Positions 24,087-61,402 of a stretch of 64,000 nt of DNA are shown one piece after another (the stretch's first letter is position 1; every line of letters begins with the position of its first letter). The notes beneath the pieces are model-generated. The model saw only the letters and a program-made list of their open reading frames with translations, was not told the origin of the DNA and ran no database searches. A program made the translations under genes and the position numbers. The stretch comes from Patescibacteria group bacterium (GTDB lineage: Bacteria > Patescibacteriota > Patescibacteriia > Buchananbacterales > UBA6539), in contig JBAZMQ010000008.1 of the NCBI GenBank assembly GCA_041649675.1, positions 344 to 64,343 of the forward strand. The letters run 5' to 3'.

Positions 24087-24218
24087 AGTATTACTTCTTG
24101 TCTTTAAGATATCATATTTTTATTAGCTTGTAAATGATTTGATATTGGGTTTGTTTTGTGGTATATTAAAATCAGTTTTAATAATATTAACAATCAATTT
24201 TAGAAAGGGGGTGAAACA

Positions 24219-24578
24219 ATGAGAAAAATTGCAATTTTAACTACTCTAGTGGCAATTTTTGCTATCAGCGTTTTACCGGCGCTAGCTTTAGACGTCGGTT
24301 TGAACTATGGTACTTACACTGGTTTAGGGACTAAAGATATCCGTGAAGGAATCATGGCCGTAATTAGAATATTGCTAGGCTTTTTAGGCATTATCGCCAT
24401 CGTGATTATGCTTTACGGCGGTTTTGTTTGGTTAATTTCTGCTGGTAACGAAGAAAAAGTTGGTCAGGCCAAAAAAATTATTACCGCTGGGGTGATTGGT
24501 TTGGTTATCATCTTTGTCTCTTACGCTTTGGCCACCTTCGTCGTTAGCCAACTTATGACAGCCACTGGGGCTATTTAG
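24219..24578 (+). CDS. Small secreted 2-TM protein, VirB2/TrbC-pilin-like (tandem paralog 1)
   Basis: Sec signal (…LPALA|LD), then two hydrophobic helices separated by SAGNEEKVGQAKK, 119 aa. RBS GAAAGGGGGTGAAACAATG. Confidence 0.4.
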   Translation: MRKIAILTTLVAIFAISVLPALALDVGLNYGTYTGLGTKDIREGIMAVIRILLGFLGIIAIVIMLYGGFVWLISAGNEEKVGQAKKIITAGVIGLVIIFVSYALATFVVSQLMTATGAI

Positions 24579-24663
24579 TTATAATTTAATAAGTTTAGAC
24601 TTGAATTGATTTTTGGTAAGATATCTAAGCCTTTACTTATATTATTTGAAAGGGGGTGAAACA

Positions 24664-25023
24664 ATGAAAAAATTTATTGTTTTAACAGCGTTAGTTTCAG
24701 TTTTCCTTTTTTCCGCTATGCCAGTTTTGGCCTTAGAAACCGGTTTGAACTATGGTACTTACACTGGTTTAGGGACTAAAGATATCCGTGAAGGAATCAT
24801 GGCCGTAATTAGCGTATTACTAGGCTTTTTAGGCATTATCGCCATCGTGATTATGCTTTACGGCGGTTTTGTTTGGTTAACTTCTGCTGGTAATGAAGAA
24901 AAAGTTGGTCAGGCCAAAAAAATTATTACCGCTGGGGTGATTGGTTTGGTTATCATCTTTGTCGCTTACGCTTTGGCCACCTTCGTCATTAGCCAACTTA
25001 TGACAGCCACTGGAGCTGTTTAA
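24664..25023 (+). CDS. Small secreted 2-TM protein, VirB2/TrbC-pilin-like (tandem paralog 2)
   Basis: Near-identical mature region to 24219-24578 (about 90% nt identity from LNYGTYTGLGTKD onward), with an identical RBS and a different signal peptide. The start is taken at the internal MKKF rather than the ORF-track 24613. Confidence 0.4.
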   Translation: MKKFIVLTALVSVFLFSAMPVLALETGLNYGTYTGLGTKDIREGIMAVISVLLGFLGIIAIVIMLYGGFVWLTSAGNEEKVGQAKKIITAGVIGLVIIFVAYALATFVISQLMTATGAV

Positions 25024-40335: not shown

Positions 40336-40417
40336 TGCTAGTCTTGCAATTTTATTTGTTTTTGTTATAATAACCTTTGTAACTTTTGCGGGCTTGCCCC
40401 GCCGAAGTGAAACGTAG

Positions 40418-40515
40418 GCGGGTGTAGTTTCCGCCAAAGGCGGATCCGCCTCTGGCGAACAGTGGTAGAATGTCTCCTTGCCAAGGAGAAGATCGCCGGT
40501 TGGACCCGCACCAAA
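40418..40515 (+). pseudogene. Degenerate tRNA-Gly copy with a GC-rich double-hairpin insertion in the D-loop and a truncated T-arm
   Basis: GCGGGTGTAGTT[TCCGCCAAAGGCGGATCCGCCTCTGGCGAA]CAGTGGTAGAATGTCTCCTTGCCAAGGAGAAGATCGCCGGTTGGACCCGCACCA versus the intact gene 35 bp downstream. Confidence 0.6.
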
Positions 40516-40550
40516 GGAATACCTTTTTAAAATAGGCTTAACTATTTAGA

Positions 40551-40624
40551 GCGGGTGTAGTTCAGTGGTAGAATGTCTCCTTGCCAAGGAGAAGATCGCC
40601 GGTTCGAATCCGGTCACCCGCTCT
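40551..40624 (+). tRNA. tRNA-Gly (anticodon GCC)
   Basis: GCGGGTGTAGTTCAGTGGTAGAATGTCTCCTTGCCAAGGAGAAGATCGCCGGTTCGAATCCGGTCACCCGCTCT with a canonical cloverleaf and discriminator U. Confidence 0.88.
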
Positions 40625-40807
40625 GAGTAGTTAAGTTTTTTATTTTGGTGCGGGGTAAAAATCCGGCCTGTCCCGGCCAAAATAACCTAAAAATCAGATT
40701 TTTGTATTAACAAACAAGTCGCCAAATGTGGCGATTTTTTGGTTAAAAAAACCTGCCTTTGTGCGGTGCACTTGGGCAGGTAAGTTTATTTATTGTTCCT
40801 CCTGGGA

Positions 40808-42109
40808 TTATTTGTTTACCTCCATCATTGGCATTCGTTGGTTGAGTAACTCCAATGCTTGTTCGTAGGTTGCCGGCTGGTTGATTCCGCCCACTTTGAC
40901 GGTGCAGGAAAATCGGATTTGATCGCCGAAAGGAACACTGACTACGCCGTGTTCGTTTAGCATGTATTGCATGAACTGCTCGGCGTCGCCGAAAGTCTGT
41001 CCGCCGCCAGCCTGGGGCGCCCGGCAGAAAACAAAGAAGCCACCATCGGGCATTGAGACATCCAGGCCTTTTTGTTGAAGCACTGCGACCAGCCCTTGCA
41101 TCCGCTTTTCGTAATCGGTGTGAATTTTTGGTACGATCAATTTGAAATTGTTCAGGGCCTGTGCTGCTGCCCATTGCAGTGCCAGAGTTTGGCCCGAAGA
41201 TGAGTCTTCGTATTCCTTGCGGTAGGCCTTAATGATGGTTGGGTTGCCAACTACCCAGCCAACACGCCCGCCGGTCCAGTCCAGGGTTTTGGAAACGGAG
41301 TGTAAAACAACTCCAATATCCAGAAAGCCCGGAACGGATAAGACCGTAAACGGTTTTTGTTCGCCGTCAACCCAGCGTAAGTGGCAGTAGGCTTCGTCGA
41401 CAATCAATGCGACTTTGCGGCGCCGGCAGAAGGCAACAAGCTCTTCCCAAAAGCCGGGCACGGTGTCGTAGGCGCGGCCAGTCGGGTTATGCGGGCTGAT
41501 CAGGTAAATCGCGTGAAGATTTCTGACACTTTTCAGGAGTGAAATATCCGGAACAAAGTTGTTTTCCTTGTTGACCGGCAAAACCACAATTTTGGCGCCC
41601 AGCTTGGCTGCTTGGGTGCCAAAAACCGGATAACCCGGTGCGGTCACGGCCACGGAAATCCGGGGATTGGGCCAGCGTTGGTTGCCCGGAGCACAGAACA
41701 CTTTGGCCAGTGCGTCAAGGCTGGGTTTGATACCCCAAGCGTCCTGAACATTTATTTCCGGGTCCAAAACAAAAGCTTGAGCTTCAACGGTCAGATAGCT
41801 AAGACCAAAGACTTCATTGAGATGGTTGACTACGGCCTGCCGAAGTTCGGCTAGCCCTAGATCAGGATAGCCGTCAAAGTGGGGATAGCGAATTGCCGTT
41901 ACTACGGCTTCACGGATGATGCGATCAGGACCGTTGTAGGGTTCGCCGATGCCGAAGTTCAGCACCGTTACGCCGTGGTGAGTGGCAATATAAGCGGCAA
42001 TGAGGCGCTTGATTCGGCCGAACAAATACTCGGCCGTGTCATCGCCAAAGGTTTTGCCACCAATGCCTGGACCAAAAGCTCTTCGAATATCTACTCTTTG
42101 TTTACTCAT
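40808..42109 (-). CDS. PLP-dependent class I/II aminotransferase, likely LL-diaminopimelate aminotransferase (DapL-like)
   Basis: SVSKTLDWTGGRVGW (PLP-lysine region), 433 aa. Linked to lysA. GC-rich. Confidence 0.6.
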   Translation of the reverse strand: MSKQRVDIRRAFGPGIGGKTFGDDTAEYLFGRIKRLIAAYIATHHGVTVLNFGIGEPYNGPDRIIREAVVTAIRYPHFDGYPDLGLAELRQAVVNHLNEVFGLSYLTVEAQAFVLDPEINVQDAWGIKPSLDALAKVFCAPGNQRWPNPRISVAVTAPGYPVFGTQAAKLGAKIVVLPVNKENNFVPDISLLKSVRNLHAIYLISPHNPTGRAYDTVPGFWEELVAFCRRRKVALIVDEAYCHLRWVDGEQKPFTVLSVPGFLDIGVVLHSVSKTLDWTGGRVGWVVGNPTIIKAYRKEYEDSSSGQTLALQWAAAQALNNFKLIVPKIHTDYEKRMQGLVAVLQQKGLDVSMPDGGFFVFCRAPQAGGGQTFGDAEQFMQYMLNEHGVVSVPFGDQIRFSCTVKVGGINQPATYEQALELLNQRMPMMEVNK

Positions 42110-42153
42110 GTTCCGTTAGCCTTTCTGTAGTTACTAGCAAACCCGCAGTGGGT

Positions 42154-43443
42154 TTACTGGTTGAGTCCGATTTCGTTTTGCATCAGTTGTTCCAATGTTT
42201 GCCGCCGGCGAATCAGCAACAAGGTGCCATCATCGCGGACAAGCACACTGGCGGCAGCCGGAAACGAATTGTAACCGGCGCAATTCATTCCTTCACAGTA
42301 GGCGCCGGTGTCTTCAACAATCAAGAAGTCACCGATTTCCGCTTCAAGCAGTTCGCGGACAGCAATAGTGTTGGGGTCACCCGGAGCGGGAGTCAAAACA
42401 TCGCCGCTTTCGCAGCAGTGTCCGGAAATAACGCAGCCGATTTTTTGCCGGCTGTCATCATCTTCCTTAGGTAAAATTTCCATCAAGTGTTGGGCGCCGT
42501 ACAAAGTTGGACGGGCGACTTCGGTCATTCCCGTGTTGACTTTGACAAAGACTTGACCGTTGGGATCAGGCTTGGTGGAAACCACATCAACGACTTGAGC
42601 AATCAGGCAACCGGCTCTAGCAACCACGTAGGTGCCTGGTTCAATTTCAAGCTGCAGTTTACGTCCAGTGGCAGTGGCAAATGTCTGAAATAATTCGCTG
42701 ATTGCCTGACCGCAGATTGGTAAATCAATTGACGGTTCATCGGGCATACGGCCGATTTTTTGACCGCCGCCAAGACTAACTTCCTTCACGTCCGGAAGTT
42801 TTTTGGCAATGTTCAGAGCCATGCCAGCGACTTTGACCCAAATTTCGGGATCGCTGCCAGACCCAATATGGGTGTGGAGCCGCCTGATTTTTAGGCCATA
42901 TTGCCGGGCAATGGCTTTGGCCTCTTCAAGCTGCTCGTGCCAAATGCCAAAACTGGAGCTGGGGCCGCCGACGTTGGTTTTGCCACAGTGGCCTGAACCT
43001 AAGCCCGGGTTGACTCGGATGCTGATTTTACGGCCGGCCGCTAGGTTGCCAACCGGAACTCTCTTTATCATTTGACCATATTGCCGAAGCTGGTCCAAAG
43101 AACAGGCATTGAAGCGGACACCTTCAAGCGCTAGGACGAAAAGGTCAGCGGGTAGTTCTTGGCAGGTTAGCTGGATTCTGTTTGGCTTAATACCAGCCGC
43201 TAGGGCGCGGTGGACTTCAAAGCCAGAACTGGCATCAAAATGCAAATCAAGCTGGTTGACCAATTGCAGAACGGCTCGGTTTGGACAAGCTTTCATGGCA
43301 TAGCGGACCACTAGTCCGAAGGCCGCAGGGAAGTCCAACAGGGCCTTTGCTGCCTGATTTAACATCTCTTCCGAGTAGACATAGGTGGGCGTGCCAAATT
43401 GCTGGGCAATTGCACGCACTTGGTCAGCAGTTAGAAATTTCAC
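42154..43443 (-). CDS. lysA: Diaminopimelate decarboxylase
   Basis: Fold-III PLP decarboxylase with N-terminal VRYAMKACPN (PLP Lys), HTHIGSGSD, and a C-terminal CESGD catalytic Cys motif. GC-rich. Confidence 0.85.
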   Translation of the reverse strand: MKFLTADQVRAIAQQFGTPTYVYSEEMLNQAAKALLDFPAAFGLVVRYAMKACPNRAVLQLVNQLDLHFDASSGFEVHRALAAGIKPNRIQLTCQELPADLFVLALEGVRFNACSLDQLRQYGQMIKRVPVGNLAAGRKISIRVNPGLGSGHCGKTNVGGPSSSFGIWHEQLEEAKAIARQYGLKIRRLHTHIGSGSDPEIWVKVAGMALNIAKKLPDVKEVSLGGGQKIGRMPDEPSIDLPICGQAISELFQTFATATGRKLQLEIEPGTYVVARAGCLIAQVVDVVSTKPDPNGQVFVKVNTGMTEVARPTLYGAQHLMEILPKEDDDSRQKIGCVISGHCCESGDVLTPAPGDPNTIAVRELLEAEIGDFLIVEDTGAYCEGMNCAGYNSFPAAASVLVRDDGTLLLIRRRQTLEQLMQNEIGLNQ

Positions 43444-51725: not shown

Positions 51726-52088
51726 TTATTTTTTTAGAGATTTTTCTAAATCGGAGATTTCTGTCCATAACATTGCACCGATTTCTTCGGCCAGTTTTAT
51801 TCCGATTGAATGGTCATTTTCAGTAATAAAATTTTGTTGTTGGGAAAAATGTAATAGGTATTTTGATTCTTTTAAGGAGCCGTAGGAAATTTCCAAAAAA
51901 TTTAATTGAACTAAAGGTTTTTTTCGAGCATAACCTTCAAGATAGTTCAAAATTATTGAAAGGGTTGATCGTCTCCATTGGGAAACGCTGCCATATAATT
52001 CTCCTTTAGGAAATTTTTTTGTCACCCGATAGACAAATTTGACGTATTCATCAGCTTTCATTTTTAATTTATTTTGGAATTTGCTCAT
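51726..52088 (-). CDS. Four-helix-bundle protein of the '23S rRNA intervening-sequence protein' family
   Basis: YRVTKKFPKGELYGSVSQWRRSTLSIILNYLEGYARK...EISYGSLKESKYLL closely follows the family consensus (…[30 protein letters not shown]…A.GSL.EL.T.L). 120 aa. Confidence 0.75.
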   Translation of the reverse strand: MSKFQNKLKMKADEYVKFVYRVTKKFPKGELYGSVSQWRRSTLSIILNYLEGYARKKPLVQLNFLEISYGSLKESKYLLHFSQQQNFITENDHSIGIKLAEEIGAMLWTEISDLEKSLKK

Positions 52089-52260: not shown

Positions 52261-52321
52261 GACTAATTGACAATTAGGCCAAAATTAGTAATTATTATAA
52301 GGTAAAAGTAATAAAAATGGG

Positions 52322-52398
52322 TGAGTGGTGAAATTGGCCCGCCTTCGCCAAAGCTACGGCGGGTAAATATACACGCATCTATTTTAAAATTAAAAATC
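52322..52398 (+). pseudogene. Degenerate 5' portion of tRNA-Leu with a GC-rich hairpin (CCCGCCTTCGCCAAAGCTACGGCGGG, 52338-52363) inserted in the D-loop
   Basis: GAGTGGTGAAATTGG[...]TAAATATACACGCAT parallels the D-arm GTGGTGGAATTGGTATACACGCAT of the intact gene. Confidence 0.5.
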
Positions 52399-52399
52399 A

Positions 52400-52486
52400 G
52401 CAGGCGTGGTGGAATTGGTATACACGCATGCCTTAGGAGCATGTTCCCGAAAGGGATTGAGAGTTCGAGTCTCTCCGCCTGCACCA
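52400..52486 (+). tRNA. tRNA-Leu (anticodon TAG), CCA encoded
   Basis: GCAGGCG-TG-GTGGAATTGGTATACACGC-A-CATGC-CTTAGGA-GCATG-TTCCCGAAAGGGAT-TGAGAGTTCGAGTCTCTC-CGCCTGC-A-CCA. Confidence 0.85.
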
Positions 52487-52529: not shown

Positions 52530-52660
52530 AGGCGCATGCTTGCCCGCCGAAGCGAAGCGGAGGCGGGCCTTAGGAGCACGTGCCGCAAGGCTTGAGAGTT
52601 TCCGCCAAAGGCGGACCCGCCTCTGGCGGGCGAGTCTCTCCGCCTGCACCAAAAATTACA
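52530..52660 (+). pseudogene. Degenerate tRNA-Leu(TAG)-like copy lacking the acceptor/D-arm 5' part, with GC-rich hairpin insertions in the anticodon stem (52542-52568) and T-loop (52599-52631), ending in CGCCTGCACCA
   Basis: CATGC[TTGCCCGCCGAAGCGAAGCGGAGGCGGGC]CTTAGGAGCACGTG...TTGAGAGT[TTCCGCCAAAGGCGGACCCGCCTCTGGCGGGCG]AGTCTCTCCGCCTGCACCA. Confidence 0.55.
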
Positions 52661-52760
52661 AAAGGTTTGCCACCAAACCAAAAAAATTATAATCGCCTAA
52701 TGGGTGATTTTTTGGTATAATTAAAGTATTGATATTAAATTTCAAAAATTAGCTAAATTT

Positions 52761-57731: not shown

Positions 57732-61037
<3,306 letters not shown>

Positions 61038-61216
61038 AATTGGGAGCGTTGAATTTTGATTTATTCTTTTTAAATTACCAGAAGCCAAGTATCCGAAATA
61101 CTCTGTTTTTGCCTTCGGATGCTTCCTTTTGGTGGTTTTATCCGCCTACGCTCTCACTGCGTTTGAGCTTCGGCGGATAAGGGCGAAAAATTGTTCATTA
61201 AAGTGGGTTTTAGAGT

Positions 61217-61367: not shown

Positions 61368-61402
61368 CCCGCCGTAGGTCGCCTAAGGCGACCGAAGGCG
61401 GG
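61368..61402. repeat. GC-rich nested-hairpin mini-element (CCCGCC-GTAGGTCGCC-TAA-GGCGACC-GAA-GGCGGG)
   Basis: Homologous to 838-873. Lies between the 5S gene and the terminator. Confidence 0.55.

Follow-up and report, generated by a model that had tools for sequence, protein, structure and literature searches.

Rickettsia palindromic elements (RPEs) are repeats of about 100–150 bp, confined to Rickettsia and its relatives, that reportedly occur in RNA genes and intergenic DNA too, and are said to be translated as additional peptide segments; we know of no nuclease gene linked to them. In behavior, they appear to be the closest counterpart of element B, a 30-bp double hairpin found twice in the stretch of DNA analyzed here (64,000 nucleotides of contig JBAZMQ010000008.1 from a Patescibacteria group bacterium of the Buchananbacterales; hereafter, the window), each time inside an interrupted tRNA gene. 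Like RPEs, B lies in frame in protein genes, where it would be translated. By description, it is set apart from them by its 30-bp length, its two hairpins and its near-identity across several phyla. From the sequence comparisons below, we estimate a probability of about 0.7 that B is a selfish, non-autonomous, mobile double-hairpin element that inserts after TT.

In shape, B appears nearest to the hairpin elements of mitochondria. Those of Allomyces (DHEs) are short double-hairpin elements. Yeast GC clusters (PMC4478555) and the hairpin elements of sponges (RHEs; PMC2800124) are GC-rich one- or two-hairpin elements of AT-rich genomes, intergenic and sometimes located in rRNA or protein genes. 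Mitochondrial hairpin elements often adjoin tRNA genes, and their mobility has been deduced from presence and absence. B shares with DHEs and GC clusters a GC-rich composition (0.7, in a window of ~0.37) and two adjacent hairpins, whereas the mitochondrial elements are organellar and lineage-specific in sequence and B, set apart by this description, occurs in free-living or episymbiotic bacteria of several phyla. To our knowledge, neither cross-phylum identity, nor a frame bias, nor a cassette of GIY-YIG nuclease and tRNA has been reported for the mitochondrial elements.

Repetitive extragenic palindromic (REP) sequences and REPINs are, like B, multi-copy hairpins of 20–40 nt thought to be moved as folded single strands by an enzyme acting in trans. 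However, REPs are single imperfect palindromes, usually in inverted pairs, that lie outside genes, bear a 5′ GTAG, keep to one species or genus and border the gene of a REP-associated tyrosine transposase (RAYT), whereas B lies within open reading frames (ORFs) in 71 of 122 copies (here and below, counts out of 122 are among the matches listed by our census), consists of two tandem hairpins, and has TT/AA flanks and no GTAG. The miniatures of IS200/IS605 (palindrome-associated transposable elements, PATEs) resemble B in having subterminal hairpins, in leaving the target unduplicated and in inserting 3′ of a specific short motif, but exceed 100 bp, have differing end hairpins and use a 4–5-nt target motif. 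A single Y1 transposase query had no match in the 8-kb stretches around B.

Two further systems touch on the tRNA context. Phage T4 SegB is a free-standing GIY-YIG gene in a tRNA cluster, and Seg proteins exceed 200 aa and have DNA-binding domains. As with the Seg genes, the GIY-YIG genes described below lie beside tRNA genes and apparently spread together with them; unlike them, they encode a bare 80-aa catalytic domain (PF01541) and accompany a duplicated tRNA split by a double hairpin. The transposable bulge-helix-bulge tRNA introns of Thermoproteales archaea are short related inserts in D-, anticodon- and T-loops that are spliced from functional tRNAs, whereas B folds as two self-contained hairpins with no helix to the flanking tRNA, is bacterial and also resides in ORFs. 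Element B lacks defining features of both REP/RAYT repeats and tRNA introns. In the literature searched, no relevant paper contained the sequence of B, that of the companion hairpin A (see below) or the B peptide, and none connected GIY-YIG, tRNA and hairpins in Patescibacteria. Per these searches, the size of B, its cross-phylum near-identity, its frame signature and its association with a minimal GIY-YIG nuclease and a displacing tRNA appear to be undescribed.

Insertion, dispersal and target of the double hairpin

An earlier note on the window, made from its sequence alone, had described a GC-rich double hairpin in the D-loop of a degenerate tRNA-Gly copy, and essentially the same element in the T-loop of a tRNA-Leu copy. 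Both observations hold. In the Gly copy, nucleotides 1–12 and 13–54 are 100% identical to the intact tRNA-Gly gene and are separated by a 30-nt insert; the Leu insert sits exactly at the T-loop site listed in Table 1. Some details needed correction: the Gly copy does lie upstream of the intact gene, at a distance of 37 nt and not 35 nt, and its insert does consist of two hairpins, the second of which (TCCGCC-TCT-GGCGAA) has one C/A mismatch and is not the perfect CCGCC/GGCGG hairpin that had been claimed. The Leu copy of B forms two perfect 6-bp hairpins, and the 21 nt that follow it equal the 3′ end of the intact tRNA-Leu(TAG) at 52400–52486. The 28-nt core of B had no match at ≤3 mismatches in 100 dinucleotide-preserving shuffles of the window, against two independent copies observed.

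To compare the Gly locus among relatives, we retrieved syntenic loci through orthologues of the flanking TrmB-like gene, and one more (L233/L171) through a second metagenome scan. Locus L126/L127 (75% TrmB protein identity) has the same promoter and one intact tRNA-Gly, identical to that of the window, with neither hairpin A nor B. In L233/L171, the promoter and hairpin A precede the window's tRNA-Gly sequence with an uninterrupted D-loop, i.e., without B. L123/L124 (TrmB 76%) carries the promoter, hairpin A and a single intact tRNA-Gly of different sequence. Since sister genomes carry the same promoter–tRNA-Gly locus without B, B is a true insertion, and the proposal that the hairpin block is an inserted mini-element is borne out by the empty sites in L233/L171 and L126. 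The T-loops of the tRNA-Leu genes in sister loci L251 and L252 are likewise uninterrupted.

The fourth locus, L128/L129 (TrmB 70%), has an interrupted copy as in the window, with a different 20-nt palindrome, CCTGCCTGCCGGCAGGCAGG, in the D-loop, 2 nt from the window's B site. This perfect palindrome (in the region 3775–3860 of L128) behaves as a further mini-element: a related palindrome is nested within hairpin A of L128, and CCTGCCTGCCGGCAGGCAGG recurs on an unrelated contig (L261, about 500–700), where a tRNA-Gln copy riddled with hairpins has it in its variable region. Hairpin A itself has orthologues in L123, L128 and L233 and is absent from L126, with the alignment in register.

Dispersal was evaluated through an exact scan for CCGCCAAAGGCGGNNCCGCCTCTGGCG, with one genome per species, which yielded at least 120 stretches; 122 listed copies were analyzed. 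The earlier note would have given up the idea of targeted insertion had the element been confined to its two loci and shown by relatives to be ordinary intergenic DNA without tRNA similarity; with at least 122 copies in species-representative genomes, it clearly is not confined. The ends of B are sharp at 30 nt, and its consensus is YCCGCC-AAA-GGCGGR followed by YCCGCC-TCT-GGCGGR, i.e., adjacent 6-bp stems with 3-nt loops. Both closing pairs are kept in 117 of the 122 copies (T..A/T..A in 75, T..A/C..G in 26 and C..G/T..A in 16): positions 1 and 15 co-vary, as do 16 and 30, which fits two adjacent hairpins and not a single long palindrome. Variants with compensated stems also occur (TGCGCC..GGCGCA, TCAGCC..GGCTGA and TTCGCC..GGCGAA), and the same stretches hold secondary copies that the search had not selected, five of them exact and ~20 diverged, many with compensated stems.

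Most of the listed stretches are from Patescibacteria. Other labels include Omnitrophota, Ignavibacteria, Margulisiibacteriota, Kiritimatiellia, Dehalococcoidia, Brocadiia, Bacteroidota and “Gammaproteobacteria”, some of which, as labels of metagenome-assembled genomes (MAGs), may mislead. A secure case outside the candidate phyla radiation is a copy on an Ignavibacteriales contig of 1.65 Mb, where it lies within a C-terminal sorting domain of the type IX secretion system (T9SS). Copies can be numerous within one genome, with at least nine over eight contigs of MAG JBDRMC01. An assembly or adapter artefact was rejected, as B lies in frame in conserved domains, comes from many studies and assemblers, and sits on contigs of up to 1.65 Mb. 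Neither B nor hairpin A had a match in Rfam, in the window or in 16 A-bearing loci.

The flanks of B are biased, with T at −2 in 75% and at −1 in 55% of the 122 copies, and A at +1 in 60% and at +2 in 82%. Where the uninterrupted sequence of a tRNA loop is known, exactly 30 nt have been added after TT, with zero duplication. Overall, B inserts after TT, most often at TT^AA. Stems of ≥5 bp are formed by 5% of B flanks, compared to 3.5% of random sites and 7.5% of TTAA sites; because the flanks are no more palindromic than these controls, the target is a short sequence and not a hairpin loop, and general insertion into the loops of pre-existing hairpins was rejected on the same figures. Targeting of tRNA genes, as proposed in the earlier note, holds in part: ~13–14 of the 122 copies (~11%) lie in the D-, anticodon- or T-loop of a tRNA, while 71 lie in long ORFs, with TT^(AA), and not the shape of a tRNA, as the common target. 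Outside ORFs, B follows the strand of most local genes in 21 copies and opposes it in 10, which is suggestive and not significant; a strand bias was discarded as a mark of single-strand insertion.

The 71 copies inside ORFs (≥450 nt) are strongly biased in frame. On the coding strand, 54 of them read TCC GCC AAA GGC GGA TCC GCC TCT GGC GGA (SAKGGSASGG), and nine are in phase on the opposite strand (SARGGSAFGG), so that 63 of the 71 are in phase 0 overall. B is stop-free in all six frames. Copies lie within Pfam domains of RpoC (RNA polymerase beta′), leucyl-tRNA synthetase (LeuRS; its editing domain), ribosomal protein S16 (twice) and RecG, and T9SS sorting domains are hosts as well; in RecG there are two different B sites, each empty in the other lineage. 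The frame bias suggests that B stays in the mRNA and would be translated as a flexible ten-residue loop. We rejected selection on a peptide motif as an explanation, given identical nucleotides at synonymous positions and the presence of B in non-coding DNA and tRNAs. As a side observation, the RecG copies of L028, L076 and L096 all belong to the subfamily with a CCCGCC..GGCGGG first hairpin and directly follow an ATG codon, and other proteins (L021, L032 and L052) have the same ATG-CCCGCC junction at what seem to be their N-termini.

Interrupted tRNA genes and linkage to a small GIY-YIG gene

By our estimate, tRNA genes occupy some 0.3% of a genome, against the ~11% of B copies lodged in them. 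Every B-interrupted tRNA whose surroundings were searched for tRNA genes had an intact copy of that tRNA nearby (the contig-end loci L081 and L085 being excluded), and tRNA-lodged copies of B usually adjoin an 80-aa GIY-YIG nuclease gene. In 920 kb of B-bearing stretches there are 18 small GIY-YIG ORFs (PF01541; 80–95 aa), 11 of which are no more than 65 nt away from B or one of its stem-variants; 700 kb of stretches chosen for hairpin A hold only two. The layout takes two forms, either a tRNA 5′ piece with B plus 7–10 nt, then the GIY-YIG gene, then the intact tRNA, or the intact tRNA, then the GIY-YIG gene, then a tRNA copy with B. One or the other, i.e., the order tRNA piece with double hairpin–GIY-YIG–intact tRNA or its reverse, is seen in L010, L025, L027, L036, L046, L055, L081, L082 and L085, and L025 retains the 3′ end of its split resident tRNA beyond the inserted unit and intact tRNA.

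For an independent test, we took homologues of one GIY-YIG protein, chosen without regard to B, from four lineages and nine contigs. In all four lineages, a double hairpin interrupts a copy of tRNA-Asn or tRNA-Gln at ggttc^gaatcc, and next to this copy lie the GIY-YIG gene and an intact tRNA, in one order or the other. The same hairpin variant stands on both sides in two of the four (four of the five P0271 contigs, and P0286). Between GIY-YIG lineages, the variants differ by compensated stems (TGCGCC/GGCGCA, TCAGCC/GGCTGA and TTCGCC/GGCGAA). A spliced tRNA intron, of bulge-helix-bulge or other type, was rejected, given the absence of an exon–intron helix, the intact tRNA nearby where checked and the frame bias in ORFs.

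In the window, the interrupted copies are probably older tRNA genes that newer intact copies displaced, a history best supported at the Gly locus. The earlier note had seen a degenerate copy beside an intact gene; the sequence suggests the reverse history, in which the interrupted copy is probably the resident, older gene and the intact tRNA-Gly lodged later in its T-loop. In sister genomes, the only tRNA-Gly occupies the interrupted copy's position relative to the promoter: the same promoter precedes the single tRNA-Gly of L126, L123 and L233 in alignment, and the intact tRNA-Gly of L126 also begins 17 nt past the −10 box. Because hairpin A also ends in GCGGG, the resident start is equally readable at 40418. 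Beyond nucleotide 54, the T-arm of the interrupted copy is replaced by GGACCCGCACCA, ending at 40513. The segment with the intact gene is bounded by an outer repeat in which CCCGCACCAAAG (40505–40516) pairs with TTTTGGTGCGGG (40643–40654), while an inner 17-bp leader/trailer helix lengthens the acceptor stem of the intact tRNA-Gly. The ending CCCGCACCA, previously read as a retained tRNA 3′ end, belongs instead to the left terminal repeat of this segment and pairs with TTTTGGTGCGGG. L128 has a segment of the same architecture and of different, mutually compensating sequence (fold z = −8.9); there, the two halves of the resident T-stem pair around the complete insert, and 150 nt downstream the 3′ end and terminator of the resident gene are still in place. 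The 54 tRNA-derived nucleotides of the window's interrupted copy are identical to the live gene and show no decay, for which gene conversion or a leader function is a possible reason.

At the Leu locus, the promoter-like site is similar to those of the tRNA-Leu loci in L251 and L252. The interrupted copy keeps the ancestral variable arm, judging by gtgccgcaaggc, which matches that of the functional tRNA-Leu in sister L251. Two features came to light beyond the earlier note: hairpin A, which is present in both interrupted copies and differs between Leu and Gly by a compensatory change of the inner stem (GU..AC versus GC..GC), and a third tRNA-Leu fragment (52322–52379) with another hairpin, whose family also occurs in L068, L074, L091 and many metagenome loci. 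In L252, an older tRNA-Leu houses a segment TCCCGCACAATTGGT-tRNA-ACCAATTGTGCGGGA (CCCGCAC...GTGCGGG), like the Gly segment of the window. Neither interrupted copy, Gly or Leu, was called as a tRNA by ARAGORN or Rfam, and none was called at these sites in the window when the insert was removed in silico. Since both sit between promoter-like and terminator-like sites, A and B are probably transcribed in precursors.

Table 1 Features of the tRNA-Gly and tRNA-Leu units in the window (“resident” denotes the interrupted, probably older tRNA-Gly gene)
Feature	Positions	Strand	Basis or context
Promoter-like site of tRNA-Gly unit (TTGCAA, 16-nt spacer, TG-TATAAT)	40344–40371	+	Consensus scan
GCGGG, first 5 nt of resident tRNA-Gly	40388–40392	+	Starts 17 nt past −10 box
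Hairpin A, 30 nt, CTTGCCCCGCCGAAGTGAAACGTAGGCGGG	40393–40422	+	Fold; orthologues in sister loci
Resident tRNA-Gly, nt 6–12	40423–40429	+	40418–40429 100% identical to nt 1–12 of intact gene
Element B, 30 nt, slightly decayed, TCCGCCAAAGGCGGATCCGCCTCTGGCGAA, in D-loop between gtagtt and cagtgg	40430–40459	+	Empty in L233, L171 and L126
Resident tRNA-Gly, nt 13–54 (remaining D-arm, anticodon arm, T-stem 5′ half)	40460–40501	+	42 nt, 100% identical to intact gene
Inverted-repeat-bounded segment with intact tRNA-Gly	40505–40654	+	RNA fold −72 kcal/mol, z = −8.0
Intact tRNA-Gly(GCC)	40551–40623	+	ARAGORN; Rfam, 72.9 bits
AATCCGG, probable remnant of resident T-arm 3′ half, right of inserted segment	40660–40666	+	Sequence and L128
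Terminator-like hairpin and T run closing tRNA-Gly unit	40716–40737	+	Consensus scan
Promoter-like site of tRNA-Leu unit	52267–52295	+	Consensus scan
Older tRNA-Leu 5′ fragment, gtgagtggtgaaattgg...tacacgcat	52322–52379	+	Homologous 5′ fragment in L251 and L252
26-nt hairpin CCCGCCTTCGCCAAAGCTACGGCGGG in D-loop of tRNA-Leu 5′ fragment	52338–52363	+	
Intact tRNA-Leu(TAG)	52400–52486	+	ARAGORN, Rfam
Interrupted 3′ part of older tRNA-Leu(TAG), anticodon stem to ...CACCA	52531–52651	+	
Hairpin A, second copy, 29 nt, CTTGCCCGCCGAAGCGAAGCGGAGGCGGG, where the 5′ strand of the anticodon stem meets the anticodon loop, between gcatg and ccttagg	52539–52567	+	
Element B, intact, T..A / C..G variant, TCCGCCAAAGGCGGACCCGCCTCTGGCGGG, in T-loop between gagagtt and cgagtc	52601–52630	+	
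Terminator-like hairpin and T run closing tRNA-Leu unit	52691–52709	+	Consensus scan

Proposed mobilization of element B and rival explanations

We propose that a copy of B is pasted directly 3′ of TT, mostly at TT^AA; in the two window copies, no target bases are duplicated. The hairpins would be the probable recognition feature for the mobilizing enzyme, most likely on folded single-stranded DNA, and this enzyme would be supplied in trans. Being 30 nt long and stop-free in any frame, B would be tolerated wherever ten extra residues, mostly Gly, Ser and Ala, can be accommodated, and may also persist between genes or in tRNA sequences that were redundant beforehand. Both window copies would be of the latter kind, lodged in tRNA genes apparently made redundant by newer copies (Gly, 40388–40501; Leu, 52531–52651), and dead tRNA genes inside tRNA transcription units may be sinks for several mini-hairpin families (A, B and others).

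The ~80-aa GIY-YIG nuclease is the leading candidate for moving B, since it is the sole gene physically and repeatedly linked to it, even if we would put its chances slightly below even; a RAYT-like Y1 enzyme, as encoded at L126, is the main alternative mover. More tentatively, and at odds that we put well below even, one undescribed minimal mobile system could comprise the double hairpin, the segments that carry tRNAs and the 80-aa GIY-YIG nuclease. A nuclease with a bare catalytic domain would here read the folded hairpin instead of a long stretch of DNA sequence, and the same nuclease would paste solitary hairpins at TT^AA across the genome, with in-frame inserts of ten residues in proteins, essential ones among them, as the outcome. 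In such a system, the nuclease gene would travel with a spare tRNA and could hence lodge, without killing the host, in the identical conserved tRNA gene of any bacterium, which would lead to cross-phylum spread.

Several observations weigh against B being a selfish mobile element of this kind. The window contains no GIY-YIG gene and no other candidate transposase, and ~85% of the listed B copies are solitary, with no GIY-YIG gene within the 8-kb stretch. No match to B was found in IMG/VR viral contigs, INPHARED phages or PLSDB plasmids, so that no cross-phylum vector has emerged, and near-identity across phyla is unusual for REP-like repeats or repeats resembling miniature inverted-repeat transposable elements. 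In addition, B occupies the same RecG codon in three species (L028, L076 and L096) with 30 of 30 nucleotides identical, while the flanks are 53–63% identical and third codon positions 33–47%. Since a neutral, vertically inherited insert would have diverged, this site has either been hit repeatedly, or the sequence is constrained or homogenized.

The RecG identity is also among the points that would fit a structural role, in which B and its sister hairpins are selected modules, i.e., processing or stability signals of pre-tRNA and rRNA, or binding sites of a host protein. All eight CCGCC-stem hairpins of the window lie in or beside stable-RNA genes, many functional tRNA-Gly genes have hairpin A immediately on their 5′ side, where its 3′ strand forms tRNA nucleotides 1–5, the stems co-vary, and the tRNA parts of the interrupted Gly copy are undecayed. 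However, B occurs in both orientations, in dozens of unrelated ORFs, in intergenic DNA and in three tRNA loops, without a fixed position relative to genes and without an Rfam family match; orthologous sister sites lack it, and its frame bias reflects selection on the encoded peptide and not an RNA role. We consider such a module very unlikely. Instead of a free element, B could be the integral end or junction of a homing cassette that combines a double hairpin with a GIY-YIG gene and a tRNA gene and that invades the same tRNA gene of other genomes via homology, the window copies being nuclease-less relics. This would account for the recurrent arrangement in the nine loci from L010 to L085 and in all four GIY-YIG lineages fetched independently of B, for the matching hairpin variants on both sides of the unit in two of these (P0271, in four of five contigs, and P0286), for the resident 3′ end retained downstream of the unit in L025, and for the inverted-repeat-bounded segment that carries the window's intact tRNA-Gly inside the old gene. 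It is nonetheless improbable: the solitary majority of B copies sits in ORFs or intergenic DNA, including the essential rpoC, leuS and rpsP, and because a 400-nt intermediate would be lethal in essential genes, B must be able to insert on its own. Moreover, 7–42 nt of resident tRNA separate B from the cassette junction in the window, L046, L055 and L025, so that the cassette does not physically end in B.

Mobilization by a RAYT (Y1 HUH) or IS200/IS605-type TnpA enzyme, with B a REP- or PATE-like repeat and the GIY-YIG link incidental, is likewise very unlikely. It draws on the hairpins, the absence of target duplication and the insertion 3′ of a short motif, all as in IS200/IS605, and on a 172-aa RAYT-like ORF in L126 (3903–4421; also in L127), directly downstream of the single tRNA-Gly, where the window is laden with hairpins. 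This ORF scored 63.5 bits against NF047646, below the NCBIfam cut-off of 80, and 26 bits against PF01797, and a tblastn search with it as single query found no match in the 122 B-bearing stretches (8 kb each) or in the window. Furthermore, L126, which has the RAYT-like gene, has neither A nor B at the locus, and REPs are extragenic, species-specific and marked by a 5′ GTAG, whereas B is mostly intragenic, crosses phyla and has no GTAG.

If the reading of B as a selfish mobile element is confirmed, it would be among the smallest mobile DNA elements, at 30 bp, and one of very few that are near-identical across bacterial phyla. The addition of the same ten residues to RNA polymerase, LeuRS and S16 would bear on alignment, phylogeny and annotation in candidate-phyla bacteria. 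Its link to an 80-aa GIY-YIG nuclease and a displacing tRNA would offer a testable handle on how tiny hairpin repeats move, a long-open question for RPEs and mitochondrial elements, and would bear on tRNA gene turnover in streamlined genomes. B could also serve as a marker of recent horizontal exchange among uncultured groundwater and sediment bacteria.

Hairpin A, other mini-hairpins and further features of the window

Hairpin A folds into a CCCGCC/GGCGGG stem, a GAA/GUA internal loop, a 2-bp inner stem and a GAA loop. Its consensus, CYTGCCNCGCCGAAGYGAARCRKAGGCGGG, has at least 127 copies in metagenome loci. In many genomes, it stands directly 5′ of a functional tRNA-Gly, with its 3′ strand supplying or duplicating the first five bases of the tRNA, and it is also found in unrelated, often high-GC, contexts. 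In L138, L154, L222, L230 and ~20 other metagenome loci, the core of A lies within a longer, highly conserved repeat (...tttttctgttttgctcGCCGAAGCGAAGCGGAGGCGGGcggaaacgctgggcggg...), which occurs on both strands of several contigs, as expected for terminal inverted repeats of a larger transposable element.

The window's stable-RNA genes encode a bacterial 23S rRNA, a 5S rRNA and four tRNAs (ARAGORN, Rfam). Its eight GC-rich CCGCC-stem hairpins, all in or immediately beside these genes, belong to at least four families. Four are of families other than A and B, each with an outer stem, a 3 × 3 internal loop and an inner hairpin, and are located at tRNA-Ser (838–873), at tRNA-Leu (52338–52363), in the 23S–5S spacer (61141–61177) and downstream of 5S (61368–61402). 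The first and last of these are near reverse complements.

The tRNA-Ser(CGA) gene (1103–1189) is enclosed by a perfect 13-bp inverted repeat, ATCCCGCATAAAA / TTTTATGCGGGAT, and a second tRNA-Ser (ggagagg...cctctcc) lies in pieces around it, in the region 630–1330, which has a tandem duplication of 279 bp. Its 5′ pieces are at 658–680, 826–836 and 937–959; the first and third are followed by CCCCGCAC(C/T)AAA, and the second leads into the 35-nt hairpin 838–873. Its 3′ pieces are at 1201–1250 and about 1262–1330. As at Gly and Leu, the layout is that of an older tRNA gene split by a segment bringing a new one. A split tRNA as in Nanoarchaeum was dropped as an explanation, as nucleotides 22–31 are missing and an intact tRNA-Ser lies between the pieces.

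Beside tRNA-Gly, the aminotransferase and diaminopimelate decarboxylase genes (40808–43443) have a GC content of 0.47–0.48, compared to ~0.37 in the rest of the window, and L126 and L128 carry a DAPDH_C gene where the window has the aminotransferase. Judged by this GC content and the gene swap, the tRNA-Gly locus is also a site where genes are replaced. Next to the tRNA-Leu unit is a gene for a four-helix bundle of the 23S_rRNA_IVP / Avd-like family (51726–52088, minus strand), which is found upstream of tRNA-Leu in L253 too. The 23S rRNA gene (57732–61034) exceeds the Rfam model by ~380 nt, and two 68-nt AT-rich palindromic repeats (59199–59266 and 59613–59680; 88% identical) flank the probable extra segment. 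Elsewhere in the window, a direct repeat of 300 nt (24200–24499 / 24645–24944) has copies that are 87% identical and 445 nt apart. A contig identical to that of the window is present in ENA sample ERZ27247363.

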